57,383 bases of DNA from a virus (lineage: Duplodnaviria; Caudoviricetes), in IMG/VR virus record IMGVR_UViG_3300028615_000012, positions 1 through 57,383 of that record. One strand, given 5' to 3'. The stretch's first letter is position 1. Every line of letters starts with the position of its first letter. Shown here piece by piece: positions 13,757 to 55,785 of this stretch. The notes beneath the pieces were generated by a model that searched no databases, was not told the DNA's origin, and saw only the letters and a program-made list of their open reading frames with translations. A program made the translations under genes and the position numbers.

Positions 13757-14170
13757 ATGACGAACCGCACCCCATGGACACCGGCCGAGAATGTCGCGCT
13801 GTGTCGTCTGTACTTCACCATGCTGGACGCAGCCCTCGACGGCCGCGACTACAACAAGGCGGCGTTGATCCGCAGCGCACAGGGCGCCGGCGACCAGTGG
13901 CAGAACGACAGCCACGACGCCGACGGTAACGCCGTGCTCCGCAACCGCAGCCGCGGCAGCATAGAGGCCAAGCTGATGAACGCCAGCGCAGCGCACCGTG
14001 ACCTAGTGCCGGGAGCCGAGACAATGGACGGCCACGGCTACCGGGCGCTGGCCAACTACCAAGCCGCGCTCAAGGAAGCGATGGCGGATGCACTCGCAGC
14101 CCGCGGCCACCGCTCGCAGGAATTGACAGCGCACTACGTTAAGCAGCGTGTCGTAGGGCAGCGCCCATGA
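13757..14170 (+). CDS. Stand-alone domain resembling the N-terminus of HNH/DUF3883 restriction-type nucleases (137 aa)
   Basis: WTPAEN..LCRLYFTML....RDYNKA...RSRGSIEAKLMNASA...GYRALANYQ; no nuclease motif. Confidence 0.55.
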   Translation: MTNRTPWTPAENVALCRLYFTMLDAALDGRDYNKAALIRSAQGAGDQWQNDSHDADGNAVLRNRSRGSIEAKLMNASAAHRDLVPGAETMDGHGYRALANYQAALKEAMADALAARGHRSQELTAHYVKQRVVGQRP

Positions 14171-15135
14171 TCGCCCGAGCCTACCGGCTGGACGTCACCC
14201 GACTGGCCGCGGACTATTCCGCGGCCGTTCGGGCGGCGCTCACCGACAACCAGCTGGCCAAGGTGCAGCGCGGCGACGCCGTCGCTGACGACTACACCGA
14301 CGCCGGCGAGATCCTCAACGAGTGCATCGCCGCGGCCGTGCCCGGCTGCACTATCGCCGACTACCAGCAGGAGGCCATCGAGGCGCAGCAGCGCGCGGTG
14401 GAGGCTGGCTATCGGCTGTCCCGCATTCTCGTCGCCTGCGAATTCTCAGGAACCGTGCGCGACGCTTTCGCAGCCTGCGGCCATGCCGCCGAGTCCTGCG
14501 ACATACTCCCGAGCGAATCGCCGGGAGGCATTCACCACCAGCGCGACGTCCGAGAGATCCTCGGCGACGGCTACCACCTGATGATCGCCCACCCGCCGTG
14601 CACGTATCTGGCCAGCAGCCAGCTGTGGCGGTGCAAACCACAACACGACGTCCGCGCCAAGACTGGGCACCCCGACGGCTGGCGCGAGGCGCAGCGTCAG
14701 GAAGCGTTACAGTTCGTGCGGGATCTCGCCGCGGCGCCGATCGAGCGCGCCTGCATCGAGAATCCCAAGGGCTGCATCGGCACCGAGGGCGCCGCGCCGG
14801 GCTTCACCCCGACAATGGTGCAGCCCTACGAATTCGGCCACGACGTCAGCAAGCAGACCTACCTATGGTTGCGCGAGCTCCCCGAGCTCAAACGCGACCC
14901 GGCCGACTATGTCGAGCCCCGCGTGATCGAGTACAAGGGCAAGCCGGCGAAACGGTGGGCCAACCAGTCGCCATGCGGCGCCGATCGCACCGGGCCGAGC
15001 GCCGACCGCGGCCACAAGCGCAGCCGGTTTTTCGCCGGCATCGCCCGCGCCATGGCCGAGCAATGGGGCGGGCTGGCCACACGGGCCCGCGCCACCGTGA
15101 CGCCGATCACGGCGCAGATGGAGCTCGGACTGTGA
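14167..15135 (+). CDS. Phage-type C5 cytosine methyltransferase-like protein with an N-terminal extension
   Basis: ILVACEFSG (motif I variant), AHPPC (catalytic Cys), IENP, QPYEFG..SKQTYLW, RSRFFAGIARAMAEQWG. Confidence 0.8.
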   Translation: MIARAYRLDVTRLAADYSAAVRAALTDNQLAKVQRGDAVADDYTDAGEILNECIAAAVPGCTIADYQQEAIEAQQRAVEAGYRLSRILVACEFSGTVRDAFAACGHAAESCDILPSESPGGIHHQRDVREILGDGYHLMIAHPPCTYLASSQLWRCKPQHDVRAKTGHPDGWREAQRQEALQFVRDLAAAPIERACIENPKGCIGTEGAAPGFTPTMVQPYEFGHDVSKQTYLWLRELPELKRDPADYVEPRVIEYKGKPAKRWANQSPCGADRTGPSADRGHKRSRFFAGIARAMAEQWGGLATRARATVTPITAQMELGL

Positions 15136-15917
15136 CCCCGCGCGACATGATCGAGGCCGGCGCGCTGGTTTTCGCGTCGCACTCCGGCGGCAAGGATTCG
15201 CAGGCGATGCTCGCCGAGCTCCGGACCCAGGTTCCCGCCGAACAGCTGGTGATCGTACACGCCAATCTTGGCGAGGTAGAGTGGCCCGGAGTCATAGACC
15301 ACATCCGCGCCAACATTGACGGCGACCAGCTGCACATAGTCCGCGCCGGGAAAACCCTGCTCGAAATGGTCGAGCGCCGCCACGAGTCACGGCCGGACGT
15401 CCCGCCGTGGCCGAGCGCGAAGCACCGCCAGTGCACGAGCGACCTCAAGCGCGGGCCGATCTACAAGTTTATCCGCCAGACCATGAAGGCGCGCGGCGCG
15501 ACGCTGGCTATCAACGCCATGGGCCTACGCGCCGAAGAATCGAGCGCCCGCGCCAAAAAGCAGCCGTGGACCCACAATGCGGCCCTGAGCAAGGCCGGCC
15601 GCACGGTTTACGACTGGCTCCCTATTCACGACTGGCCGACGGCGCGCGTTTTCGAGCGGATCGCCGAGGCTGGCCAGCAACCATTCCACGCATACGAGAG
15701 CGGAAACGAGCGCCTTTCCTGCATGTTCTGCATTCTCGGATGCACCGGCGACCTCCGCAACGCCGCCAGACACGCGCCGGAGCTCGCCCGCAAATACATC
15801 GAGCTCGAACGCCGCACCGGCTATTCGATGTTCCCTAATGCCACGCTCGCCGATCGTCTCGGCTGGAACCAGCCCGAGCCGGCCGCCGAGCCCGACCAAT
15901 TGGAGCTCGCCCTATGA
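15132..15917 (+). CDS. PAPS reductase/DndC-family PP-loop protein 1 (261 aa)
   Basis: GTG start coupled to the upstream stop; SHSGGKDS, RQCTSDLK, GLRAEES, RLSCMFC. Confidence 0.85.
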   Translation: MTPRDMIEAGALVFASHSGGKDSQAMLAELRTQVPAEQLVIVHANLGEVEWPGVIDHIRANIDGDQLHIVRAGKTLLEMVERRHESRPDVPPWPSAKHRQCTSDLKRGPIYKFIRQTMKARGATLAINAMGLRAEESSARAKKQPWTHNAALSKAGRTVYDWLPIHDWPTARVFERIAEAGQQPFHAYESGNERLSCMFCILGCTGDLRNAARHAPELARKYIELERRTGYSMFPNATLADRLGWNQPEPAAEPDQLELAL

Positions 15918-16933
15918 GCACAGCCCAGTTTGATCTATTCCGCGAGGCAGAGCCCGCGACCCAGGATGGCAGCCTGCAGCTGCCCGACGCGCCGCTGATT
16001 GTATGCTACGGCGGCGGCGTCGACTCGACGGCCATGCTTATACGCATGGTGCGCGAGGGCATACGGCCGGACGTGATCACGACGGCCGACACCGGCGGCG
16101 AAAAGCCGGAAACCTACGCCTACATCGAGCGGTTTTCGCGCTGGCTGGTTTCGCAGGGATTCCCCGCGGTGCAGCTGGTGAAGTACCAGACCAGCCGCGC
16201 GCCTTATAGCGACCTTGAAGGCAACAACACGGCAAACGAGACGTTGCCATCGCTGGCGTTCGGGATGAAAAGCTGCAGCATTAAGTGGAAGGCGCAGCCG
16301 CAGGATTACTACATCAAGGGCTGTAAGGGCGGCCCCAACCAGTGCGACCCGCACCCGGTATGGCTGGAAGCGCAGCGCCGCGGCGTGAAGCCTTGCAAGT
16401 TAATCGGCTATGACGCCGGCCCGGCGGATCTCCGGCGCGCTGGCCGCCTGAAAACGTCAGACGCCAGCTTTCAGTATGCCTACCCGTTGCAGCAATGGGG
16501 TATGGATCGCGGCGACTGCATCGCCCTAATACTCGACGAGGGTTTGCCCGTGCCGATTAAAAGCGCCTGCTGGTTCTGCCCGGCTTCGCAAAAGTGGGAA
16601 CTCTACTGGCTGGCCGGCAAACACCCGCGCCTATTCGAGCGCGCCCTACAGATGGAGCACCGCGCCATGGTGGGCCGGCATAGCCGCTGGCCATGGCGGG
16701 ATTGCGACTACGGCCCGGACTGGGAGCGCCTCATTCACGAGCCGGCCGACCAATGGCCGCAGGTAGATATTACCGTCGGCCTCGGACGCTCGTTCGCTTG
16801 GAATCACTGGGCCCGGCAAAACGGCGTAACCGACAGCGCCGGCCGCGTGATCCTGGACCCGCAGGAATGCCTACGGCGGGCCAATGAATTGAAAGCGCAA
16901 GGCGGCAATGCGGCCGACTTGCGGACATGCTAG
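15914..16933 (+). CDS. PAPS reductase-family PP-loop protein 2 (339 aa)
   Basis: YGGGVDS, DTGGEKPETY, CSIKWK, IGYDAG, YPL..WG, KSACWFCP. Confidence 0.85.
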   Translation: MSTAQFDLFREAEPATQDGSLQLPDAPLIVCYGGGVDSTAMLIRMVREGIRPDVITTADTGGEKPETYAYIERFSRWLVSQGFPAVQLVKYQTSRAPYSDLEGNNTANETLPSLAFGMKSCSIKWKAQPQDYYIKGCKGGPNQCDPHPVWLEAQRRGVKPCKLIGYDAGPADLRRAGRLKTSDASFQYAYPLQQWGMDRGDCIALILDEGLPVPIKSACWFCPASQKWELYWLAGKHPRLFERALQMEHRAMVGRHSRWPWRDCDYGPDWERLIHEPADQWPQVDITVGLGRSFAWNHWARQNGVTDSAGRVILDPQECLRRANELKAQGGNAADLRTC

Positions 16934-23464: not shown

Positions 23465-24130
23465 CTATTTTGCGAGCGGGCTGTTGATGCGGCAGCCGAT
23501 ACGGTCGCCGCCGGCGCACTGGCCGGGCGGGCAGTTACACCATGTAACGTGCCGTGACAGCGTGTTACGGAGGCGCTCCTGGGCCTCCACCGGCGTCTCC
23601 TGCATGTCGCCGTAAATGTCGATTAGCTCGGCAAGCAGATCTCCCGGCGCATGTCCAGAATCGGCAAGGGGCGCGGATTCGTTCCTTACGGTTTCTATGA
23701 TGTTCTTAGTCTGCGGGGTATCATCCGGCGGGGGCTTCCTTTCTACGCGACCCTCGCGCAGCTGCTCCTCGCGGAGCTCCTCGACCGACTTCCCGGTCAA
23801 CTTCGACGCCAGATCGAGCAGCTTGTCCTCGTCGACCTCGGCCGGCGGATGAATTACCGGCTGCTCTTTGACGACCTTGTCGGCCTGCTCCATCTGCTCG
23901 TAGGACATGACACCGATGCGGCCGTCGGCATGCTTTACGATCCAGCCGAACTCAGGGATCTCCGTCTCGGTGTCGTTGACGTTGAGCCACTCTTTGTTGT
24001 CGACGGTCATCAGCCACTTGCTGTTCATCCACGCCGGCCACGTCTTTTCCTGATACCGCGTAGCCGGCGTCAGCTGAAAGGCCTCGATCACCGTGCCGTC
24101 TGGCATTTTGTAGCGGAAATCAGCCGGCAT
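23465..24130 (-). CDS. Hypothetical protein (221 aa)
   Basis: IEAFQL..WPAW...GWIVK domain and a Cys-rich C-terminus. Confidence 0.7.
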   Translation of the reverse strand: MPADFRYKMPDGTVIEAFQLTPATRYQEKTWPAWMNSKWLMTVDNKEWLNVNDTETEIPEFGWIVKHADGRIGVMSYEQMEQADKVVKEQPVIHPPAEVDEDKLLDLASKLTGKSVEELREEQLREGRVERKPPPDDTPQTKNIIETVRNESAPLADSGHAPGDLLAELIDIYGDMQETPVEAQERLRNTLSRHVTWCNCPPGQCAGGDRIGCRINSPLAK

Positions 24131-24845
24131 CGTCGCCACCCTTGCGCGCCTGCACAACCAAGCCGGCGAGCCACGTCGACACGTATTCCGCATCCGCGAC
24201 GTCGTCTTTGGTCAGCGTCATCTTGTTGGCTGCGTCGGGCCCGGAGTACGGAAACGCCTTGATCAGCTTGTGCGCCTCGCGGAGCTCGGCCAGATCGACC
24301 TCCTCCTGGGAGACGTCACCGCTGTCGATGTAGTCCTCGGAGTCGGGGTCCTTGGGCTCGGCCTTTTTCTTTTTCTTTTTCGGCTTGTCGTCGTCGGTCA
24401 TCATCTGTTGATGAATGTTCCGCACCGTGCGATCGGTGACGCCGCATATATCGGCGATCTCCTCCTGCGTCATCTTTGAGATCTCCGGATCCTTGAGGGC
24501 CATCTGCACCGCATGCCGCTTGTCGGCATTCGTTCGCCGTAAGCCGTGCGCCTGATTGGCTCCGAGCGCCTCTACCAGCGCGTCGTGCATGTTCCCCTCT
24601 TTGACCTCGCAAACAACCTCTGGCCAGCCCAGATTGACCATTGCATAGAGCCGGTGAAAGCCGTCGACCAAGACGTTGCGCTCGGTGTTTTTCTCGCGGT
24701 AGACCAGCAACGGCGGAAACTCGGAGCCATTCTCGAGCGCCTCCTGATAATCGTCGATTACTGACCGATCCAGCCGCACCCGAACCTGCGTCGCTGCAGT
24801 CGCCTCGATGTTGTCGATCTCAATTGTCTCGTAGACCGGCTCCAT
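24120..24845 (-). CDS. ParB/Srx N-terminal domain plus HTH protein (241 aa)
   Basis: QVR..LD..VIDDY...FPPLLV...LVDGFHRLYA, ANQAHGLRRTNADKR, TQEEIADICGVTDRTV. Confidence 0.85.
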   Translation of the reverse strand: MEPVYETIEIDNIEATAATQVRVRLDRSVIDDYQEALENGSEFPPLLVYREKNTERNVLVDGFHRLYAMVNLGWPEVVCEVKEGNMHDALVEALGANQAHGLRRTNADKRHAVQMALKDPEISKMTQEEIADICGVTDRTVRNIHQQMMTDDDKPKKKKKKAEPKDPDSEDYIDSGDVSQEEVDLAELREAHKLIKAFPYSGPDAANKMTLTKDDVADAEYVSTWLAGLVVQARKGGDDAG

Positions 24846-25123
24846 CAGTCGTCCTCCTGCAGCATGTCCATCTGGTTGTTGTAGAGCTTTTCGAGCGCCG
24901 CTTCCTTCTCGTTGGCCAGCTGCGTTATCAGCTGGTTGCGCAGCGTCTTGGTATGGTCCGGCTGGCTCGCCAGCTGCATGAGCAGGGCCGGGTCGACGCC
25001 CGTGTCGTGCTCCTCGCACACGCCCTTGCCGGCGACGCGCATTGCGAGCTCGAGAACCTCGAGTTTTTTCTCGGCGTCAGCGCGCAGCCGTTGCCGGAGG
25101 GTCATTGCTTTTTTCTTGGCCAT
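24845..25123 (-). CDS. Hypothetical protein (92 aa)
   Basis: AAGGA RBS; TGATG coupling; ends QMDML.. Confidence 0.75.
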   Translation of the reverse strand: MAKKKAMTLRQRLRADAEKKLEVLELAMRVAGKGVCEEHDTGVDPALLMQLASQPDHTKTLRNQLITQLANEKEAALEKLYNNQMDMLQEDD

Positions 25124-37858: not shown

Positions 37859-40800
37859 CTAATCATCCCTGCTCGGCCCGAATAAATACTCGTACAGGGC
37901 CGTGTCATCATCCTCGAAAATTGCCCGATATGTCTTGCTGATCTGGCCAGTCGGCGTGTGTGTTGCTGTACCCACGACATCGAGGAACGCATCGACGGCC
38001 GCAGCATCCGCCTCTCCTTGTCCGGCTTGCTCGATCAGTCGCCAGCTGTCGTTCAAGAATACTCCGACTGGCGTGTTGCCGCCGCCATACTTCGCGGCGA
38101 GGAGCTCGCGGGCATACGGTACACCGGAAATCATTGAGTCTGCGGTGACTGCTGCAGTCCACTTGGCCCACTCCTCCGGCTCATCTTCCTCCTCCGGAAG
38201 CCGGTTATACAGTAGCGCGGAGGCCATGCCCTCGACCGTGAACAGAAGGAACATGTCGGCCGTGTACTTCGCAATCTGAGCCGGACTACGGAAGTTGGTC
38301 GACTTGGTTTTTTCGTAAGCAATGTTGCCCTTGGCCAGCATGTAGGACAGTAGCGTCGACCATATCCTGATCCACTGGGACTGACGGTTTTTGCGCAGGC
38401 CGCTGGTGCCACGCTCGAAACCAGAGCGATCAGAGAAAAAGCCGCTGGTCTGTGATGCCTCGACCTGAGTGTCCGCGTAAATGACCGCGTCGGCCTCGGA
38501 GAGCTCGAGCTCATTCAGCCCCTTGTGGTAGGCACCGAGCCATGTCGTGATGTCGACCACCTGCTGCGCTTTGGCGATCGGGAGAAAATACGTGTAGGCG
38601 AGCCGCGTCATAACGACTTTACTGGCCGTTGGCGTCGTGCCAAAAATGCTCTCGAGATGCGCGCGAGTGTCCTGCACGTCCTTGTTCCACGCGCCGATCT
38701 CATAGCGAGCGTTCAGAAACTTCGACGTTTCCATGACATGCTTCCACGCGGCCCGCGGATTCTGCATGAACTTGCCGAGGCCGCGGCCGTAGTGTGTCGC
38801 GCCGATAACCGCAATCGTCTGAAAGACGCCGGTGAACTGCAGGAACATGACTGCCATGTTCCAGCCGAGTTTCGCCTTTGTGAATCCCGTGCGTATCCAA
38901 GCGGTGCTCGCCTCCCAGATGTTTTCGCTTGGGAGCTCGCCCACGGCCGCGTCAGTGAGCCAGAGATTGAGCGCCTCGAGGGAATGCTCGTTGCCCGTTT
39001 TCTTGAACGCCTTGCGGACCTCACGGGAATCGAGCAGCCGCTTGATGTAGAGCGTTTCATCGCCTATGGCAATGTCGCGAATAACCTCGCGCAAATGCGT
39101 GTCGATATTGTTGAGGCCCAGTCGCACCACCTTGCCGTGATTGCGAACGCGATTGTAGGTTGCGCCGGCTCGCGTGTTCGCTGTCACCATTGAGCCGAAA
39201 GCGACCCGGTTGAACTCGTCCTGTATGTCCTGCGGCGCCGCTTCGGCCTCATAGCTTGAATCGTATCGGAGCGGATAGTAGCCGCCGGCCAGCGTTACCT
39301 CAGTGCCGTCGGCCGTGCGGATCGTGAACGGCAACGGCTCCACCTTTTGCGGAGCCACGCCGCGTCGACGCTTTTCAGCCTCGAAAATCTGATCTCGATA
39401 GGTGTCCAGATAATCCCAGATCCCCTGCACAAAACCCCAGTCCTGCGCCGTCAGATGCGCCAGCATTTCATCCACAGCCTGCTGCGTAAACACTGGTGCA
39501 CCCTCGTCCACGCCGCCCAGTAACGCCGCTCGGTTCGACTGTGACCCCCAGTTAAGCGCCACGGACAAAATCTCCGATCGCGAATAGGTGCGATCCAGCG
39601 ACTCGATCCGAATGTTTCGCTTGGCCAGCTGACCGAGCTCGGCTTTCGAGTAATGCTGTTGATAAATTTTGGACACATCCTCCTGCGCCTTGTGCAGCAT
39701 CGGGATCAATTTCTCAGCGTAAGCCCGCCGCATTGGCGCAATGATTCGCCGGGTCAGCGCACCAAATCCGGCGTTATCCAGGACGCGGGCAATCGAACTC
39801 GGTCGCAACCATGTGCGTATGCCCTGATCAATGCTCTTGCTAACCTGCTCGCGACCAGTGCGGACGCCACCCGGCCGGAGATCAATGCGCTCATTGTTTT
39901 CAAACAGTGACTCGACGACGTCGGCCTCGGCTTCCGAAAAGTCGACCCACTGATCGTTGACGTAATGCTTGTTGCTCGCGACCGCGGAGTGCTCGATCTG
40001 TTTGACCAGATCGCGCATGCCCATGAATTCCTCGAGCGTGAGATCCTGCCAGTTCACGCGGTCATCAAAGATCCGCGCCAGTGTCGAAGGCGTGACAATG
40101 AACCGGCCCTTTTCTACGTCGTCACGAAGGCTCTGCAGTCGCTTATCCATGTCGACCTGTGTCAGCGATCGACGGCGCAGATCAACCCCCTCGAGGATTG
40201 CCTGTATGTCCTCGAGCACACCGGCCTTACCCATCTTGCGTTGAATCGTTGGCCGATTGAATTTCGACAGATACCGCTGGCCAGCTTGTGCATCGCGCTG
40301 CGCTTTGTTTGCCGCGCGCCACATCTCGAGCGCATTGATCTGCTGCATCTTGTGCTTGTAGGCGGCCTGATAGTCTCGTCGCCGCATTGCCTCGAACGCC
40401 ATGCGTCCCGCTTTTCGCTCGGCCGCGAGATACTGGTGCGGCTTGATGTTGCGGATCTCTTTGGCTGCAATCGCCTGCCGGGCGGCAGCGCGAATCATCT
40501 GCACTTCCTTGCGACTTGGCAGCTGCGCTTTGTTGGCGGCGATGGCCTCGCGCTCCTGCCGACGCTCGGCCTGCTGCGCAGCGCGTACTGCCGGCCTGTC
40601 CTCGCGAACCATCCGCCGGAGAGCTCGCAGTTCTGCAGCAAGGATTTCCGCGCGCTTGTGATCGTGTACGGCGCGCACGGCATTGTCAGCCAATGTGCCG
40701 TCCGTCAATGGATCCGGATAGAGCTCGAGCATGCGGCGATCGGTTTCGGCTTTGATCCACGCCTTCATCTTTGGCGCCTTGATCATCTCCTCGATCATTT

Positions 40801-43800
40801 TCATGGCGTCTTTGTAGCCGAACATCTGCGCGGCTACCTGGACGTCGGTGCCGCCGTCCCGGCTGTAGATGTACGGCTTCGGCAGGCGATTGAGCATGGA
40901 CTGATCGCCGGCAACGAGCTCGAGCAGGGATTCTTTGTCGATCTTGAACGGGGCCGTCGGCGACGGCTCACCGTTGGGCTGCTGATCTTTTTGCAGCTTC
41001 GCAAGCGCCACATAGACGCGCGTGTTGTACGCCTCCTCCTCCACTTCGGCCTGAATAGCCTTGCGCTGCTCCTTCCACCACGCCAGCTGATCACGCCGCA
41101 TGGCTTTGATTAGCCGTCGTGTCTCGCGATCAACAGCATCATCATGCGCCGCCTGCAGTCGTCGCTTGTAGAGCGTGAACTCCTCCTGCGACATGCGCGC
41201 CTCCTCGGCGTTCAGGAACAGCGCGGAAAAGCCGTGTGACTCCTCGGCCAGTTTGATCTGCTCGTCACTGGCCAGCATGCGGTCCATAACGCCGCGGACC
41301 TCGTCGGTTAGCTCGACATTGGCCATCTGCGTCAGCTTGCGGTAAATCGCCTGCAGCCAGCGACGGAACGCATTGAACGAATCCTGTAGCTCGAGACTGG
41401 GGGCCTTGCCCTCCATCGTGTATTTCTCAAACGCCCGTGCCCACTTTTCGTGATGCTCGGTTGTTATCTGTGAGCCATCGGTGACGCCAAGGAAATTCAG
41501 AATTTTCGACCAGTCATCTTTGATCTGTTGCGGAGCGTCCTCCATGGCAGCAACACGACGCATGACTTCCAGATACAGATGCCCGGTTTCGTGAATGAAC
41601 GTCGAAAAGTCCGCGTTCTCGGTCAGACGGATGTAGCCTCGGCGCAAATCATCAAAGTCGATGTAGCCTCGCTCGTCCTGTTTATAGCGCCCATCCTTCG
41701 GCGGGATCGTGCCCTGATCCGCGCGGCTTTTGAGCTCGTCGCCGTACAGGTGATCCAGGAACCGGAAGTCATCGGCGAAATTGACGATGTTCTGCACCGC
41801 CTCGGTCGCCAAGTCGGGTGTAACCATGGCAAACGCCGATGCGTTTGTTGCATCCAATGCCTGAAAAAATGCCGCCGCGCCACCGCTCGATCGCAAGTTT
41901 TCCATCTGCTCTGTTGTCAGCGCGATGTGACCGATCAGTCGGTGTCGATTGTCGAGCAGATAAACGCCGGGATTTCGGCCAGCCTGCCGAATCATCGTGC
42001 GCATTGATTCGGGTCCTGTAATCGGCGCGGCGTCTGAGGGCGCAGCGACCAGTATTCGTTCTGTAACCGGAACACGCTTTTTGCGCCGCGCTTTTGTCGG
42101 CACGATCGGACCCAAGTCGCTGCCGTCTGCCGCCATGCGCCCCGCCTTACCGCCGGCGGCGACAATCACATGGCCCATGATGGTGACGCCGGTGCCGGCC
42201 AGCGTGTCCTGCAGCTTTTTCGTAATTCGCGCGTCGGCTTGTGACGGCTCGTTTTTGCCCGAAGGATGGTTGTGGCCGAACCAAACGTATTTCGCGCCCT
42301 TCGTATTGTGGATAGCGCCTGCCAGAACACTCGGAAAGACACCTGCGCCGTCCGTCGTGCCCTTCGTATGATGTATGACGGCGATCGGTTTTTGCTGCTC
42401 ATCCAGCACCAGCGCGACGAAATTCTCCTGCGCATTTTTTCGCACAGGCGCCAGAACATGCGCGGCATCTTCCGGTGTTTCGACCTTGTCAATGCCGATG
42501 TTAAATTGCTTGGTTTCCTCGTGCTTGACGCGAATCTTGTAGTTCGCAATAGATTCGGATTCGCGTATCTTGCCGGACAACGCGGCCGCACCGTACATGT
42601 CGCTGTCGACTGGCTCGCGCACCATATCGTCGCCGTCCTGTTCGGCAGGATTCAGTCCAGTCGACGTGTCGATGTAGTTACCGCTTTCATCGACGATGAT
42701 GCCGCGGTCCGGCTCCTCGAGCACGGTCCGAGGATCCTCGAGCAGCTTGTGCAGCTGGCTGTTCTGGCCAGCCTGCGGATTGACTGCACCCTCTGGCGCT
42801 ACAATGCCTCCCTCTCGATAGCCCGCCGCCACTCGATCACGCTGGCTGATTCCCGTAGCAGCTGCAGCGCCCGGTTGTACTTCATCTGCAGCACCCGGCC
42901 GTTCTGCACCCCGAGGCTCTGGTTGCGTAGGGTCAGTAATATCGCCTCGAGTTCCTCTTTGTTCTGTCCCGACATCTTGGAGGCTGTTGCCAAGATTGTT
43001 GAAAGAGTCGATGTCCTGCGCGTCCGCGAGCCACCGGTAGATTTCGTGGTTGGCATTGAGCGTATCCTCCAATCGTTTCCGCAACCCGGCCATGACTTTC
43101 GGCTCCTGGATCGCGGTCGCCATGGCGTTCTGCAAAGCAAAAATAAAATCATTGTCGTGCGACCACTCCGCGTAGTGAGCAATCTCGTGGATCATCGTGG
43201 TCAGCATCGACGCGGCTGTTACGTTGGCCGGCACTTCCCGGCCGTCCGTCTCGGCACGGGTACGCAACTCGCGAGGATCGGCCGCCGGGTTTATAAACAT
43301 CATCTGGCCCGGCACCTTGGTATGGACGCCGTAGTGCATCGGGCCCAATACGCTGACGCCGGCACCTATCTTGTCCAGACCGCCAAACATGTTTTTGTCG
43401 CCCTTGACGGCGATCAAATTGCGGGTGTCCAAAAACACCCGGCCGATCTCGTAAAAGTATTTATGGACCCGCTCCTCGCCGAACTTGTCGTAGAGCGCAT
43501 CCATGAGATCCGAGCCGGCGTACTCCTCGTGAGTCGACAACAATAGCTGGCGATCGTCTTTGAATTTCTTTTGGTTGTGCAGGATTGGTTCTTTGTTCGG
43601 AATTAAATCCTGATCGACCTGATACTCCGAAGTATCTACCCCGCTCAGATCTCGCATTTCCTCCGGCGTAATACGCTGCTGCTCGATGCCATCGACCACC
43701 AGAACACCGTCACGAACCTCGAGCATCGAACCCTCATCGAGACGCTCGACCAGACCTCCCCGCTGCCGCTCAGGCGGTTCCAGTTTGAGCTCGGGGCCGC

Positions 43801-45622
43801 TGCTACCGTCCTCGGTGAGCGTAAACAAGGTTCCGTAGCCCTGGGCCACTTGCTCGGCCTTGCTTCTGGCATTCAACACAGCGAGATAGGCCTGCAGCTG
43901 CAGCATGTCGCGCTCGGCATGATCGACAAAGGCCTGTCGCTGCAAATTGAACGGGTAGCCCGGCTCGCCAGGATCCATGTCTGGCTTCACGTCGATATAA
44001 AACTGACGCTTGATGATGTCTGACGATGGGTTGACTGGGTTCTCTGTAATGCCTAGCTCGAACTGTTTGAGGCCGTGCACAGACACCCGTGCATTTTCTC
44101 GCCAGACCGCTCGCTCATCTTTCGACATGTAAACGTCGACCGTGCCCCACTCGAAACGGACCTGTTGGATGACGTTGAACTCGTGGTGTCGGAAGTTTTT
44201 GCCGGACGGTGATTGACGGCCATTTTCTGTAACCTTGATGCGCGGATCGAGAATCTGTTTGTCGCTCGATTCCCAGACATCGAAGCCGCGAATGTCCGCT
44301 ATCGTTTTGACCTCACCGGTTCGGAAATCGGTGTACTCGTCGGGCATCGTCACCGTGACGGTAGTGCCGTTTGGCTCGTCGGTTTTCTCGCGACGCAGAA
44401 CGCGATCAGGCGGATACTTCGGATTCAGCGAATGACTTGGATCCTCCATGTTTTTCGCAAAATCCGCGCCTGTTGTCTCGAGCGTCGTTTTGACGCCATC
44501 GCGCACCGTGACGACTTTGAGCGCCTTGTTGCCGGCAAGGAAAAGCACCTTGGCGATACCGAAACCGCCAGAATTGATGTCACCCTCTTTGGCGGTGCCA
44601 GCAACACGCAGAAAGCCTGCGTTGATCATGTCGGGCGTCATGCCAACGCCGTTATCTCGGACTGTTACGCTGCGCTTGTCATCGCTGACGGTAATGTCGA
44701 TTTCGCCCTCGTCGACGGCACCCTTGCGGACATTGGTTCGCACCGCGTCGTAGGCGTTCTGGAACAGTTCCTTGATCGTGACCTTGTGGATTTTCTCCAT
44801 GTCACCGTAAAGCGCCGGGCCAAGCAGCTTGAGCACACGGCCGGCATCGGTTGAACCGCTCGCGCCCATGGCCTCGAGCTCGGCTTCGGCCTGCTGATCA
44901 TCAAGAAAATTGAGCTCCTCCTGTATTTTCTCGCGCTCGGTTCCCGGCTTTTTGCCGTCGTCGATCGGCCCCTGGAACAAACGATCTTTTACGCGCGCGT
45001 CCTCCCACCGCTGTTTATCCAGATCCTCCATGCGATTCTCTAGCTCGACCTTTTGCGCAACGAGAGGCTCGAGATCTCGCACAATTTCGATCGACCGGTC
45101 CATCATCCGGTGCCACGACTGGAATACCTCAAGCGGGGAATTGCCGTGAAGCAGATCGCCGCCCAGTTGATTGTTCCGGAACAGATCGGGATTGACGAAA
45201 AAGATCGCCGACAAACGATTCAGCAATTGCTGATCATTTTCTGGGTCAATGTTTTCCTGCGTTGGCGCTTCCTGCGGGCCGGTCCAGCTGACGACCATAT
45301 CTCGGATCCAGCGAATGCGGCTCCACTCGTCCTGCAGATCGCCAATGTCAGCGAGGACTACTTCATATTCAGCCTCGGCCTTGTCAAATGCCGCCTTGGC
45401 GTAGTCGCCGATAATCGCCCGCACATCAGGATTGCGAACTTGGAGCTCGCCCGACACCTTGGCTTTGCGCACGACGTCGAGCATGTCCATCTCGGCCGCC
45501 AGCTGGTATCGCTGCACGACCGCCTCATCAGACATACCCTCATCCAGCCACGACTGCAGGAGCGCGCGCTCATCCTTGTCGATCAGCTTTCCGAGTTTGC
45601 GAATGCAATCCTTGAGTGCCAT
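37859..45622 (-). CDS. Giant polyvalent internal virion/ejection protein (2587 aa): GHKL ATPase, HExxH peptidase, JAB/RadC, second HExxH, helical C-terminus
   Basis: KELFQNAYDA / DNGVGM / GGFGIA / GTTV; IHEIAH; HNHPSG.EPSQAD; STFIHETGH. Confidence 0.85.
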   Translation of the reverse strand: MALKDCIRKLGKLIDKDERALLQSWLDEGMSDEAVVQRYQLAAEMDMLDVVRKAKVSGELQVRNPDVRAIIGDYAKAAFDKAEAEYEVVLADIGDLQDEWSRIRWIRDMVVSWTGPQEAPTQENIDPENDQQLLNRLSAIFFVNPDLFRNNQLGGDLLHGNSPLEVFQSWHRMMDRSIEIVRDLEPLVAQKVELENRMEDLDKQRWEDARVKDRLFQGPIDDGKKPGTEREKIQEELNFLDDQQAEAELEAMGASGSTDAGRVLKLLGPALYGDMEKIHKVTIKELFQNAYDAVRTNVRKGAVDEGEIDITVSDDKRSVTVRDNGVGMTPDMINAGFLRVAGTAKEGDINSGGFGIAKVLFLAGNKALKVVTVRDGVKTTLETTGADFAKNMEDPSHSLNPKYPPDRVLRREKTDEPNGTTVTVTMPDEYTDFRTGEVKTIADIRGFDVWESSDKQILDPRIKVTENGRQSPSGKNFRHHEFNVIQQVRFEWGTVDVYMSKDERAVWRENARVSVHGLKQFELGITENPVNPSSDIIKRQFYIDVKPDMDPGEPGYPFNLQRQAFVDHAERDMLQLQAYLAVLNARSKAEQVAQGYGTLFTLTEDGSSGPELKLEPPERQRGGLVERLDEGSMLEVRDGVLVVDGIEQQRITPEEMRDLSGVDTSEYQVDQDLIPNKEPILHNQKKFKDDRQLLLSTHEEYAGSDLMDALYDKFGEERVHKYFYEIGRVFLDTRNLIAVKGDKNMFGGLDKIGAGVSVLGPMHYGVHTKVPGQMMFINPAADPRELRTRAETDGREVPANVTAASMLTTMIHEIAHYAEWSHDNDFIFALQNAMATAIQEPKVMAGLRKRLEDTLNANHEIYRWLADAQDIDSFNNLGNSLQDVGTEQRGTRGDITDPTQPEPRGAERPGAADEVQPGAAAATGISQRDRVAAGYREGGIVAPEGAVNPQAGQNSQLHKLLEDPRTVLEEPDRGIIVDESGNYIDTSTGLNPAEQDGDDMVREPVDSDMYGAAALSGKIRESESIANYKIRVKHEETKQFNIGIDKVETPEDAAHVLAPVRKNAQENFVALVLDEQQKPIAVIHHTKGTTDGAGVFPSVLAGAIHNTKGAKYVWFGHNHPSGKNEPSQADARITKKLQDTLAGTGVTIMGHVIVAAGGKAGRMAADGSDLGPIVPTKARRKKRVPVTERILVAAPSDAAPITGPESMRTMIRQAGRNPGVYLLDNRHRLIGHIALTTEQMENLRSSGGAAAFFQALDATNASAFAMVTPDLATEAVQNIVNFADDFRFLDHLYGDELKSRADQGTIPPKDGRYKQDERGYIDFDDLRRGYIRLTENADFSTFIHETGHLYLEVMRRVAAMEDAPQQIKDDWSKILNFLGVTDGSQITTEHHEKWARAFEKYTMEGKAPSLELQDSFNAFRRWLQAIYRKLTQMANVELTDEVRGVMDRMLASDEQIKLAEESHGFSALFLNAEEARMSQEEFTLYKRRLQAAHDDAVDRETRRLIKAMRRDQLAWWKEQRKAIQAEVEEEAYNTRVYVALAKLQKDQQPNGEPSPTAPFKIDKESLLELVAGDQSMLNRLPKPYIYSRDGGTDVQVAAQMFGYKDAMKMIEEMIKAPKMKAWIKAETDRRMLELYPDPLTDGTLADNAVRAVHDHKRAEILAAELRALRRMVREDRPAVRAAQQAERRQEREAIAANKAQLPSRKEVQMIRAAARQAIAAKEIRNIKPHQYLAAERKAGRMAFEAMRRRDYQAAYKHKMQQINALEMWRAANKAQRDAQAGQRYLSKFNRPTIQRKMGKAGVLEDIQAILEGVDLRRRSLTQVDMDKRLQSLRDDVEKGRFIVTPSTLARIFDDRVNWQDLTLEEFMGMRDLVKQIEHSAVASNKHYVNDQWVDFSEAEADVVESLFENNERIDLRPGGVRTGREQVSKSIDQGIRTWLRPSSIARVLDNAGFGALTRRIIAPMRRAYAEKLIPMLHKAQEDVSKIYQQHYSKAELGQLAKRNIRIESLDRTYSRSEILSVALNWGSQSNRAALLGGVDEGAPVFTQQAVDEMLAHLTAQDWGFVQGIWDYLDTYRDQIFEAEKRRRGVAPQKVEPLPFTIRTADGTEVTLAGGYYPLRYDSSYEAEAAPQDIQDEFNRVAFGSMVTANTRAGATYNRVRNHGKVVRLGLNNIDTHLREVIRDIAIGDETLYIKRLLDSREVRKAFKKTGNEHSLEALNLWLTDAAVGELPSENIWEASTAWIRTGFTKAKLGWNMAVMFLQFTGVFQTIAVIGATHYGRGLGKFMQNPRAAWKHVMETSKFLNARYEIGAWNKDVQDTRAHLESIFGTTPTASKVVMTRLAYTYFLPIAKAQQVVDITTWLGAYHKGLNELELSEADAVIYADTQVEASQTSGFFSDRSGFERGTSGLRKNRQSQWIRIWSTLLSYMLAKGNIAYEKTKSTNFRSPAQIAKYTADMFLLFTVEGMASALLYNRLPEEEDEPEEWAKWTAAVTADSMISGVPYARELLAAKYGGGNTPVGVFLNDSWRLIEQAGQGEADAAAVDAFLDVVGTATHTPTGQISKTYRAIFEDDDTALYEYLFGPSRDD

Positions 45623-45840
45623 TAGCGATCCTTCACATCGAGCCACGCCTTGATGACAAGGAGCAGGAGCTCGTCCTCGAGCATGATTCTACGCCACCGC
45701 GCCTCTGCGTCCTCGCTGGTGCCCGGCGGAAATGTCGGCTCCGGCGTGAACGGCGGCGGCGGAACGACGCCGGTCCTGCCGTAGTGCGATGACAGGTTGT
45801 GCGAGCTCGCGTAATGAGATCCTCCATAATGGCTGCTCAT
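45622..45840 (-). CDS. Small protein with SSHY repeats and a Pro linker (72 aa)
   Basis: Overlap-coupled; ends EDELLLLVI. Confidence 0.7.
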   Translation of the reverse strand: MSSHYGGSHYASSHNLSSHYGRTGVVPPPPFTPEPTFPPGTSEDAEARWRRIMLEDELLLLVIKAWLDVKDR

Positions 45841-53869: not shown

Positions 53870-55785
53870 TAGAAGCCCTCGATACCTTTAAGCCGCGCTA
53901 TTGCCGAATCGAAGCCCTGCGTGACCAGATAGAACCACGCCTCCTCGAGATCCTTCTGGCTTGGCTCCTCGTTGTTCTCGTCGATCGACTTGCCCATGTT
54001 GACCAGCCAGTCGTAGGCCTTCGCGGTGCCGCCGCCATAGCGATCGGGAATCTGGATGTCGGTCGAAAACGCGGTGCGCGGTACGCCACCAATGTTGACC
54101 TCTTGATCGAGCGGAATGTAGGCCTCCTGCATCTGCTCCGCAGACAGCGCCGGGAACGGCAGTTTCTTGTCGCGACCCCACTCGCGCACAAATACCTCGT
54201 GCCGCATGATTTCACCCAGGATCTCGCGGCGACGCTGTTCGCTGACCTTGCCATTGGTATCGTCACCCTCGGCAACAATGGCCGCGTCCCACGCCAGCGC
54301 AATGCGAGCCCACCGGTCCTTTTGTTCGGACGAATCGCCAGCCGTCGGCTTACGATCGAAGTACGGCGTTGCAACAAGATACTGCTCGAGAAACTGCGTA
54401 TCGGTAAGCCCGCCGGGCTCCTGCGGCGCTTTGCCAGACTCGACACGATTTCGCGCCAGCCTTTTTTGTGCGGACATTGTTTCCATGCGCTTGCGCGTGA
54501 CCACGTTTCGCCACAACACACGATCGCCGTCAGGGTTTTCAGGGTCGATTGGCATGGCGCCATTGAGATCCGCCGCAGCCTTGTCGGCTTCGGTCATTGC
54601 GTCCCACATTTCGTAAGCCTCCCACGTCGTATGATCGTTGAAACCGTCGCTTTCGTGGTGCGACTGCGACGCGCGTTCCAGTTGCCGGCGCTCGCCCTCA
54701 GTCAGCTGCTTTAGCTTCGCGGGATCGAGCTCGTTGTATGTCAGGCCGTTCTCCCGCTCGATCTCGTTCAACAACTCCATCATCGTGTCATGCCGCCGCG
54801 CCGCTTCCTCGGCCGCTTTGCGCCCAGTCTTTTGCGATTCCAGAATCATCGCCTCTTTGCGCGCTTTCGGATTGTCCGCGAGATAGTCCCGAATGAACGC
54901 CTCACGCTCGCTGATGCTGGTGCGCTCCGGAAACGCCTCCCACGCTGCATCCATGGCCTCGAATGCCAGCCCTTGCGTCGTGTCGATCTCGAGCTCGACC
55001 TCGGCCTGCTCGAGCATTTTTTGCGCGATGTCAGCATGCAGATAATCGGCAATTGACCCAGAGCCCTCGCCCTTTTCAAGATCCTCCGGCGTAATTGGGC
55101 CACGCGCTTTGCGGTGGGCCAGCGACAACTCGAGCTCTTTGACGCGATCCTCCGGCGGCATAAAGTCCAGTGCCGATGTTGCTGCGTCCTTCACAAATGC
55201 CTGCAACAGCTTTTGACCCTGGACGTCGCTGTAAACGCCCTCGTCAACGGCCGCCGTGATGTTTTCCAGCTGCGCCTGCATGAGATCGTTCTGCAGCTGC
55301 GGTGATTCAGCGACAGCAATAGCCTCGAGGGCGGAATCGAGATCCGCCATGATCTTGCCCTGCTGCCAGTCGATTCGCTTGCGCCGTGCAATCTCGCCGG
55401 TGAACGCACGACCGCGCTCGCGGATCAGGTTCGATTCGGCCGTCAGCAATTGCCGGTCGCTGCCCGACAAATTGTATTTGGCTAAAACCTCATCTGCGCG
55501 CGTCTGATACGTGCTCGTGTACGCCTCGTCGAACTTGTCGAAATCCTCGCGATCACGAATTTCCTCGCGGGCCGCGATGTCGGCCTGCAGTAAATCGTTT
55601 TTCGCCAGTGAGTAGTTGAGTCGATCGTCTTTGCGCTTTTTCTCGCCGGCAATCTGCGCGAACGTACCGGCTGCCTTGGAGATCGAGTCTGCAATGATCA
55701 GGCCGCTTTCGTCCGGCAAATCCACGCGATTTGATCGCAATGAAGGCCGGGCGCCGTAATCCAAAACTGTAGGTAGCCGTGCCAT
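53869..55785 (-). CDS. Internal virion/ejection protein (638 aa)
   Basis: MARLP N-terminus and all-helical composition, as in T7 gp15-position proteins. Confidence 0.7.
   Translation of the reverse strand: MARLPTVLDYGARPSLRSNRVDLPDESGLIIADSISKAAGTFAQIAGEKKRKDDRLNYSLAKNDLLQADIAAREEIRDREDFDKFDEAYTSTYQTRADEVLAKYNLSGSDRQLLTAESNLIRERGRAFTGEIARRKRIDWQQGKIMADLDSALEAIAVAESPQLQNDLMQAQLENITAAVDEGVYSDVQGQKLLQAFVKDAATSALDFMPPEDRVKELELSLAHRKARGPITPEDLEKGEGSGSIADYLHADIAQKMLEQAEVELEIDTTQGLAFEAMDAAWEAFPERTSISEREAFIRDYLADNPKARKEAMILESQKTGRKAAEEAARRHDTMMELLNEIERENGLTYNELDPAKLKQLTEGERRQLERASQSHHESDGFNDHTTWEAYEMWDAMTEADKAAADLNGAMPIDPENPDGDRVLWRNVVTRKRMETMSAQKRLARNRVESGKAPQEPGGLTDTQFLEQYLVATPYFDRKPTAGDSSEQKDRWARIALAWDAAIVAEGDDTNGKVSEQRRREILGEIMRHEVFVREWGRDKKLPFPALSAEQMQEAYIPLDQEVNIGGVPRTAFSTDIQIPDRYGGGTAKAYDWLVNMGKSIDENNEEPSQKDLEEAWFYLVTQGFDSAIARLKGIEGF

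Follow-up and report, generated by a model that had tools for sequence, protein, structure and literature searches.

Peptides resembling sliding-clamp-binding motifs at the termini of three coupled phage genes for putative DNA-modifying enzymes

Results

Three overlapping genes with clamp-motif-like termini

The virus record IMGVR_UViG_3300028615_000012 (Duplodnaviria; Caudoviricetes) is a complete stand-alone record of 57,383 bases, and this whole stretch of DNA, hereafter the window, was analyzed. Three overlapping genes on its plus strand encode a protein resembling C5 DNA methyltransferases and two proteins with PP-loop signatures, PP-loop 1, of the 3′-phosphoadenosine-5′-phosphosulfate (PAPS) reductase family, and PP-loop 2 (Table 1). 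Each carries at one end a short peptide similar to those that bind the bacterial β sliding clamp, DnaN. The original prediction, made from the sequence alone, had reported the termini QMELGL, QLELAL, and MSTAQFDLF on these proteins and proposed that the enzymes ride the host clamp; all three are present as claimed in the sequence and in the list of open reading frames (ORFs). The canonical clamp motif is Q-φ-x-[L/M]-[F/L] or Q-φ-x-[L/M]-x-[F/L], with substitutions allowed at position 2 and similar binding by motifs of 5 and 6 residues (PMC11139829). QLELAL and QMELGL fit this definition, as does the QMDML peptide of a 92-residue protein encoded elsewhere in the window, and QFDLF deviates only at the tolerant position 2, where it has Phe.

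For PP-loop 1 the most likely start codon is GTG 15132, which shares GTGA with the stop codon of the methyltransferase gene and has GGAG 8 nt upstream; a 531-aa frame from 14322, the alternative in the ORF list, was rejected as the gene in favor of this start. The ATG of PP-loop 2 overlaps the PP-loop 1 stop codon in the same manner (ATGA), and the three genes are translationally coupled. The same 9-mer, TGGAGCTCG, occurs in the coding sequences of both C-terminal motifs, the probable ribosome-binding site (RBS) of the next gene and the clamp-type peptide sharing codons.

Table 1 Features of the window discussed in the text.
Feature	Position	Strand	Remarks
C5-DNA-methyltransferase-like gene	14167-15135	+	322 aa; phrog_757 match, AlphaFold2 fold
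Four-helix N-terminal domain of the methyltransferase-like protein	14167-14421	+	residues 1-85
QMELGL, C-terminal hexapeptide of the methyltransferase-like protein	15115-15132	+	protein ends ...ITAQMELGL; clamp-binding-like
9-mer TGGAGCTCG, first copy	15119-15127	+	
GGAG, probable RBS of PP-loop 1	15120-15123	+	methyltransferase motif codons 2-3; 8 nt before GTG 15132; putative function
PP-loop 1, PAPS-reductase-family gene	15132-15917	+	261 aa from GTG 15132; stop 15915-15917
QLELAL, C-terminal hexapeptide of PP-loop 1	15897-15914	+	protein ends ...EPDQLELAL; clamp-binding-like
9-mer, second copy	15901-15909	+	
GGAG, probable RBS of PP-loop 2	15902-15905	+	PP-loop 1 motif codons 2-3; 8 nt before ATG 15914; putative function
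PP-loop 2, second PP-loop ATPase-like gene	15914-16933	+	339 aa; GGGVDS
QFDLF, N-terminal pentapeptide of PP-loop 2	15926-15940	+	residues 5-9; protein starts MSTAQFDLF; clamp-binding-like
GGNAxDxRTC, C-terminal end of PP-loop 2	16904-16930	+	residues 331-339
ParB-like gene	24120-24845	-	probable start ATG 24845-24843
QMDML of the 92-aa protein	24860-24874	-	residues 84-88, then QEDD; clamp-binding-like
92-aa helical protein with acidic tail	24845-25123	-	directly upstream of ParB-like gene
2595-aa virion-module protein	37859-45646	-	

The window proteins, 59-63 in number, were called with a custom script based on GC3 and then scanned against PHROG and Pfam. A motif lies within the terminal 20 residues of 4 out of 63 of them. 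When the window proteins were shuffled 2000 times, four or more motif proteins arose 116 times and three or more canonical termini 13 times, while three adjacent motif-bearing proteins arose 0 times. The count inside the window is by itself only moderately significant, and the weight of the argument therefore rests on conservation among homologues. A fifth candidate, the ORF at 55114-55305 (+) starting MGQRQLELF, lies inside a 638-aa gene on the opposite strand and was dropped as spurious.

Conservation of the terminal peptides in homologues

Conservation of the motifs in homologues had been suggested as a check of the original prediction, and this check came out positive. Among the 120 best methyltransferase homologues, 117 have a canonical motif in their last 15 residues, compared with 1 of 2260 interior 15-residue windows; with Ile allowed at the last position the count rises to 118, the exceptions being P0239 and P0240. 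The peptide itself occurs in 23 variants (QLALF in 35 homologues, QLELF in 27, QMELF in 12, and others), the linkers preceding it are 10-27 residues long, and there are 112 distinct tails. In the alignment of this family (A1), Q317 is at least 90% conserved and the linker columns 303-316 fall below that level. Because the motif variants and linkers turn over while the motif persists, we argue that the motif is under selection.

For PP-loop 1, the pattern Qxx[LM](x)[FLI] was found in the last 20 residues of all 30 nearest homologues and of 45 out of 119 overall. Nine PP-loop 1 homologues have an N-terminal motif, and some of these (e.g. P0064, P0091, and P0102) have none at the C-terminus; as judged from these sequences, the motif switches ends within the family, which we count in favor of clamp binding. 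For PP-loop 2, a motif within the first 20 residues was found in 43 of the 120 homologues, with 23 of these among the nearest 30, and four further proteins among the nearest 30 have xDLF or xPLF with no Gln in register. Shuffled termini gave a mean of 0.8-2.8 matches per 120.

The same picture was obtained from related viral loci. Where all three genes are present, all three proteins carry the motif (8/8 loci, including two pairs of near-duplicates). On related viral contigs the motif is found on 28 out of 28 complete long-form methyltransferases, a 29th (L142) being cut by the contig end, and on at most 1 of 20 short-form methyltransferases.

Family matches, predicted folds, and probably disordered ends

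The methyltransferase-like protein matches phrog_757, annotated as 'DNA methyltransferase' (E 7.5e-46), and has no match in Pfam or NCBIfam, including the curated family of C5 DNA cytosine methyltransferases; it is therefore named methyltransferase-like here, and methyl transfer is putative. Its AlphaFold2 model has a mean predicted local distance difference test (pLDDT) value of 89.9. Alignment A1, from which the model was built, comprises 117 sequences, including 116 of the 120 homologues (P0191, P0209, P0220, and P0236 were left out). Foldseek returned 119 matches to the model at E ≤ 0.001, with DNMT1, DNMT3A/B, M.HaeIII, and DNMT2 as the leading PDB entries and the methyltransferase of prophage CP-933R also at the top; template modeling scores were modest (0.3-0.4). 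The segments P143-P144-C145 (PPC) and E198-N199-P200 are invariant or nearly so in A1, with P143, C145, E198, N199, and P200 invariant. We take the first to be the catalytic Pro-Cys motif IV and the second a Glu-Asn-Val-type motif VI. By both architecture and catalytic residues, the modeled core has the C5 DNA-methyltransferase fold, which fits the earlier proposal that DNA, rather than a metabolite, is the substrate.

The model consists of an N-terminal helical domain (residues ~1-85), the core (~86-302), and a disordered tail (303-322) of low confidence (pLDDT 62/52). The four-helix N-terminal domain is restricted to the long-form members of the family, those with the tail, and opens with the nearly invariant sequence LDVTRLAAD; it gave no family match in Pfam and no match in the ESM Atlas.

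PP-loop 1 contains the PP-loop sequence SGGKDS and matches PF01507 (39.4 bits; cut-off 22.5) as well as phrog_424 (E 7.2e-40). Its score against the DndC equivalog model TIGR03183 is 29.8 bits, far below the cut-off of 290.4, over residues 92-180 only, and PP-loop 2 gave no match to this model. The linker preceding the PP-loop 1 motif, GWNQPEPAAEPD, is rich in Pro, Glu, and Ala.

PP-loop 2 matches phrog_424 (E 6.1e-26) and has no Pfam match. Its AlphaFold2 model (mean pLDDT 89.3), built from an alignment of 116 sequences including 115 of 120 homologues (P0249, P0290, P0348, P0359, and P0360 were left out), has a PP-loop ATPase fold in its core, with Foldseek matches to LarE, PAPS and adenosine-5′-phosphosulfate (APS) reductases, TtuA, and argininosuccinate synthase. 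Residues 1-20, which include the motif, have pLDDT 65/58, and the core begins at the strand 28-31. The low values here and in the methyltransferase tail bear out, for these two proteins, the claim that the peptides lie on flexible ends. C121, C202, C219, and C222 are invariant in the PP-loop 2 family. At its C-terminal end the family has a conserved GGNAxDxRTC in a low-confidence tail, and 107 of the 120 PP-loop 2 homologues (P0241-P0360) have a Cys within the last 4 residues; together these features hint at a mobile catalytic Cys and perhaps also at an Fe-S site of the kind known from LarE and TtuA, two of the structural matches.

Another tail that recurs in these families, [G/L]IPxx[V/I] (e.g. 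LAGIPITVE), is present close to the C-terminus in 23 of 120 PP-loop 1 homologues (among P0032-P0092) and 3 of 120 PP-loop 2 homologues (P0278, P0299, and P0347). Two of the homologues with this tail also have a clamp-type motif after it. It could serve as a further docking peptide or belong to the fold of a subfamily.

Predicted docking of the methyltransferase tail on DnaN

Residues 278-322 of the methyltransferase-like protein, with an alignment, were submitted to complex prediction together with two copies of Escherichia coli DnaN. The complex scored 0.63, compared with 0.00 for the best of 3 controls; an unrelated protein substituted for the clamp gave 0.00. In the calibration set, which contains no predictions of this type, 116 of 157 solved complexes attain the score mark, compared with 2 of 215 mismatched pairs. 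Contact agreement between runs was at least 49%, and the pLDDT of the partner was at least 42, its own fold being uncertain. In the predicted complex, residues 314-322 touch DnaN residues 152, 172, 174-177, 242, 247, 320, 344, 360, and 362-366, among others. These contacts cover 10 out of 12 residues of subsite I and 7 out of 8 of subsite II as given in PMC11139829, i.e. the canonical pocket. The multimer prediction proposed as a check of the clamp hypothesis thus came out in its favor, with E. coli DnaN standing in for the clamp of the host.

Relatives in bacteria and in other phages

Distant relatives of the methyltransferase in bacterial genomes (26-47% identity) carry the motif in 3 out of 80 loci, two of which are from Acinetobacter with QQDLF; one broken copy shows 64% identity over a short stretch. 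The distant proteins usually stop just past a conserved AMAEQWGG, and a genome scan for synteny with PP-loop genes found none except at one Rhizobium locus. In a first viral scan, the motif was absent in 4 of 6 PP-loop 1 loci. As far as these sequences go, the motif tail is an add-on of this phage clade and sporadic elsewhere.

Several of these relatives are of interest for other reasons. By eye, 11 of the 80 distant methyltransferases (L032-L111), mostly alphaproteobacterial, end in -AA (...LEETRAA, ...QLAA), which might be an ssrA-like C-terminal degron. The filamentous Pf-like Pseudomonas phage 62-2, an inovirus, has a short-form methyltransferase of this family (L112:1483-2124); it ends in QAILELGVTA, which is only a loose match, and was rejected as a motif carrier. 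In the cultured Pseudomonas putida phage Dolphis, gp104 (L166:3238-4479) is an unrelated DPPY-type methyltransferase that ends in QQDLFAGAAV and adjoins a PAPS-reductase gene; it is a convergent case and a possible experimental model. No motif was found in the PAPS-reductase homologues of Labrenzia phage V1 and Dolphis (gp103), nor at the annotated ends of the PP-loop 2-like protein of PARCL1pr.

The degron-like ends raise the question of whether the tails could be proteolysis tags, or mere by-products of the overlapping start and RBS signals of the next gene, with no docking role. Hydrophobic ends such as ...LFA, ...LAL, and ...LGL resemble ssrA-type tags, a resemblance to which the -AA ends of the distant methyltransferases can be added. 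In addition, codons 2-3 of each C-terminal motif contain GGAG, and the start codon of the following gene overlaps the final codon. Neither version accounts for a motif that is N-terminal in PP-loop 2, for the 5-10 residues that follow it in many PP-loop 1 homologues, or for the Gln, which is invariant, and the position-4 Leu. Moreover, from the amino acids alone, the commonest methyltransferase variant, QLALF (35 of the 117), cannot encode GGAG at those codons. We regard this explanation as very improbable and return to clamp binding as the likely function of the peptides.

The 92-residue protein and its ParB-like neighbor

A fourth motif belongs to the 92-residue protein, for which no above-threshold family match was found in Pfam, PHROG, or NCBIfam. 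The original prediction had this protein ending in QMDML; the peptide is present, and it is not terminal, as it lies four residues from the end of a protein that finishes QMDMLQEDD. We found 68 relatives among representatives of 50%-identity clusters, of which 63 were aligned (A3; P0382, P0396, P0419, P0421, and P0429 were left out). Both Q84 and N82 reach at least 90% conservation there. Qxx[LM](x)[FL] occurs in the last 18 residues of 39 of the 68, most often with the sequence QQxLPL or QQxLDL and acidic residues after it, and the remaining relatives mostly have near variants, e.g. QMDLIP or QQELPG. The 92-residue protein probably binds the same clamp pocket.

The ParB-like gene that follows probably starts at Met59 of its long ORF. 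This start overlaps the stop codon of the 92-residue protein gene by one base, and the pair looks translationally coupled. Phage thymidine dioxygenases are reported to need a ParB partner (PMC13229309, 2026).

A small protein with a clamp-type motif and no enzyme domain match invites another explanation, namely that clamp take-over is the main purpose, with several abundant phage proteins, above all the 92-residue protein, filling the clamp pocket and displacing host clients such as Hda, repair polymerases, and MutS/L, and enzyme targeting being secondary. Four motif proteins in one phage would suit such a role, and over-production of MuC from phage Mu ties up the clamp and interferes with Hda-dependent control (bioRxiv 2025.01.04.631326). 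A pure competitor needs no enzyme, yet here the carriers of the motif are three enzymes whose folds are of DNA-modifying types, and the association persists from phage to phage. Take-over as the main purpose is in our view improbable; it is compatible with tethering of the enzymes and most plausible for the 92-residue protein.

Gene content of the window

According to the PHROG and Pfam scans, the structural module is podovirus-like, with a terminase, portal, capsid, tail tubular proteins, and a 2595-aa virion protein, and the early region encodes an SF2 helicase, Erf, a YqaJ exonuclease, a Ref-like nuclease, and the ParB-like protein. The same scans of the 57-kb record found no DNA polymerase, primase, or sliding clamp families, from which we deduce dependence on the host replisome. 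For the capsid protein, just two phage matches were obtained, both distant. In the 2595-aa protein of the virion module, residues 289-435 form a GHKL-type ATPase domain and residues 1056-1165 a RadC-like JAB domain.

The motif genes all lie in the early/replication region, beside the genes for the helicase, the ParB-like protein, Erf, and the exonuclease. This position would also suit a different hub, such as the phage helicase, the ParB-like protein, or the enzymes themselves binding one another, as the receptor of a Q-hydrophobic-x-L-F peptide, and the [G/L]IPxx[V/I] tail suggests that docking tails are swapped in the PP-loop families. Such a hub would leave it to chance that the clamp consensus is matched at every defined position in both its 5- and 6-residue forms, that the same peptide occurs on the unrelated methyltransferase of a very different phage (Dolphis), and that the predicted docking falls in the canonical pocket and is lost when the clamp is replaced by an unrelated protein. 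We give another hub little credence, and DnaN remains our preferred receptor.

Discussion

The terminal motifs, their conservation and disordered context, the folds of the enzymes, and the finding of no phage-encoded polymerase or clamp in the scans are best accounted for by tethering of the three enzymes to the clamp through their terminal motifs, a reading that we consider likely. What we infer from it, namely clamp binding, action at the fork, a chemistry, and a role for the phage, is as follows. The three enzymes would be co-transcribed and each independently tethered to host DnaN by a motif on a disordered end. The host replisome would copy the phage DNA and leave clamps on it; the enzymes would dock in the peptide pocket of these clamps and act on freshly made duplex DNA. 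The enzyme with the C5-methyltransferase fold would work on pyrimidine C5, and the two PP-loop ATPases would adenylate a DNA group and then replace that group, as DndC and SspD do on the backbone. The resulting modification would protect progeny DNA from restriction.

Several points weigh against this reading. The PP-loop 2 motif has an aromatic residue at position 2, and the homologues are interrelated, so that the counts are not independent events. In the 92-residue protein family, the Gln directly follows a conserved helix end (YNxQ) and could have a structural role. The GGAG in codons 2-3 of both C-terminal motifs may bias position 3 toward Glu. With regard to docking, E. coli DnaN is a stand-in for the host clamp, and the positive prediction shows likeness only; it may come from the predictor's memory of the solved peptide-clamp structures of Pol IV, Pol II, and Pol III. 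Finally, no motif is present at the expected end of 74 of 119 PP-loop 1 homologues, 77 of 120 PP-loop 2 homologues, and 77 of 80 distant methyltransferases. The enzymes must therefore be able to work without it, and tethering would be a feature of the clade rather than a requirement of the enzymes.

Eukaryotic DNMT1 is tethered to PCNA through a PCNA-interacting peptide (PIP) box. The arrangement predicted here would similarly recruit a C5-methyltransferase fold to a replication clamp, and DNMT1 is the top structural match of the phage protein. The two systems differ in clamp, motif, and domain architecture, and the phage enzyme is without maintenance-methylation domains. A phage precedent is T4 α-glucosyltransferase, which binds the clamp gp45 and for which replication-coupled modification has been proposed (Sommer 2004, cited and re-tested in PMC13216743); the gp45 interaction is not the main determinant of T4 modification levels (PMC13216743). 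Like this enzyme, the proteins studied here would be DNA-modifying enzymes of a phage associated with a sliding clamp, in our case by prediction. Unlike the presumed host DnaN, the T4 clamp is phage-encoded, and the chemistry and motif differ as well.

Among known bacterial clamp clients, Pol IV (C-terminal QLVLGL), Pol II, Pol V (QLNLF), Pol III α, and Hda (N-terminal) have the same peptide pattern on a disordered terminus (PMC11139829). Those canonical clients are host replication and repair proteins, whereas the carriers described here are putative DNA-modifying enzymes of a phage, predicted to use the same pocket. In PMC11139829, 'methyltransferase' appears 0 times and phage appears only as phage display. 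The closest phage example is MuC of phage Mu, shown by two-hybrid assays and mutants to bind the host clamp via an N-terminal QHDLF; the MuC/Mor family has the consensus Qx[D/E][L/M]F, and Tn7 TnsE and plasmid TrfA are cited as further clamp users (bioRxiv 2025.01.04.631326). PP-loop 2 resembles MuC/Mor in being a phage protein with a similar N-terminal motif, QFDLF, and in the conservation of the motif across the family. It is unlike MuC, a transcription activator whose binding has been shown, in being enzyme-like and in that its binding is predicted only.

With respect to chemistry, DndC, SspD, and BrxP are ATP pyrophosphatases with a PAPS-reductase domain that function in DNA phosphorothioation (PMC12914056, PMC12839542). 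The two phage proteins share this PAPS-reductase/PP-loop domain, which in those systems acts on DNA, and PP-loop 1 matches the DndC model weakly. They differ in that the P-loop NTPase partner required there (DndD, SspC, or BrxC) did not turn up beside the phage genes. Clamp motifs are not reported for DndC, SspD, or BrxP. A literature search of titles and abstract openings, with most subscription journals outside it, found no report of a clamp motif on phage methyltransferases or PAPS-reductase-like enzymes.

A more elaborate scheme, which we put forward as speculation and think rather unlikely to hold in full, sees the clamp as an assembly line. The three enzymes would alternate on the two DnaN pockets and build an undescribed modification stepwise on nascent phage DNA, while the 92-residue protein would clear host clients from the clamp or link it to the ParB-like protein; with Dolphis in mind, this might be a general phage strategy that has evolved repeatedly.

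If clamp tethering is correct, the three enzymes would be a bacterial/phage counterpart of DNMT1-PCNA, in which marks are written at the fork by clamp-riding enzymes. It would explain how a phage without its own replisome achieves full modification of its progeny before host restriction. It would also point to DNA as the substrate for a large set of phage 'PAPS reductases' whose routine annotation is sulfur metabolism, and would add a new class of clients to the list of β-clamp interactions.

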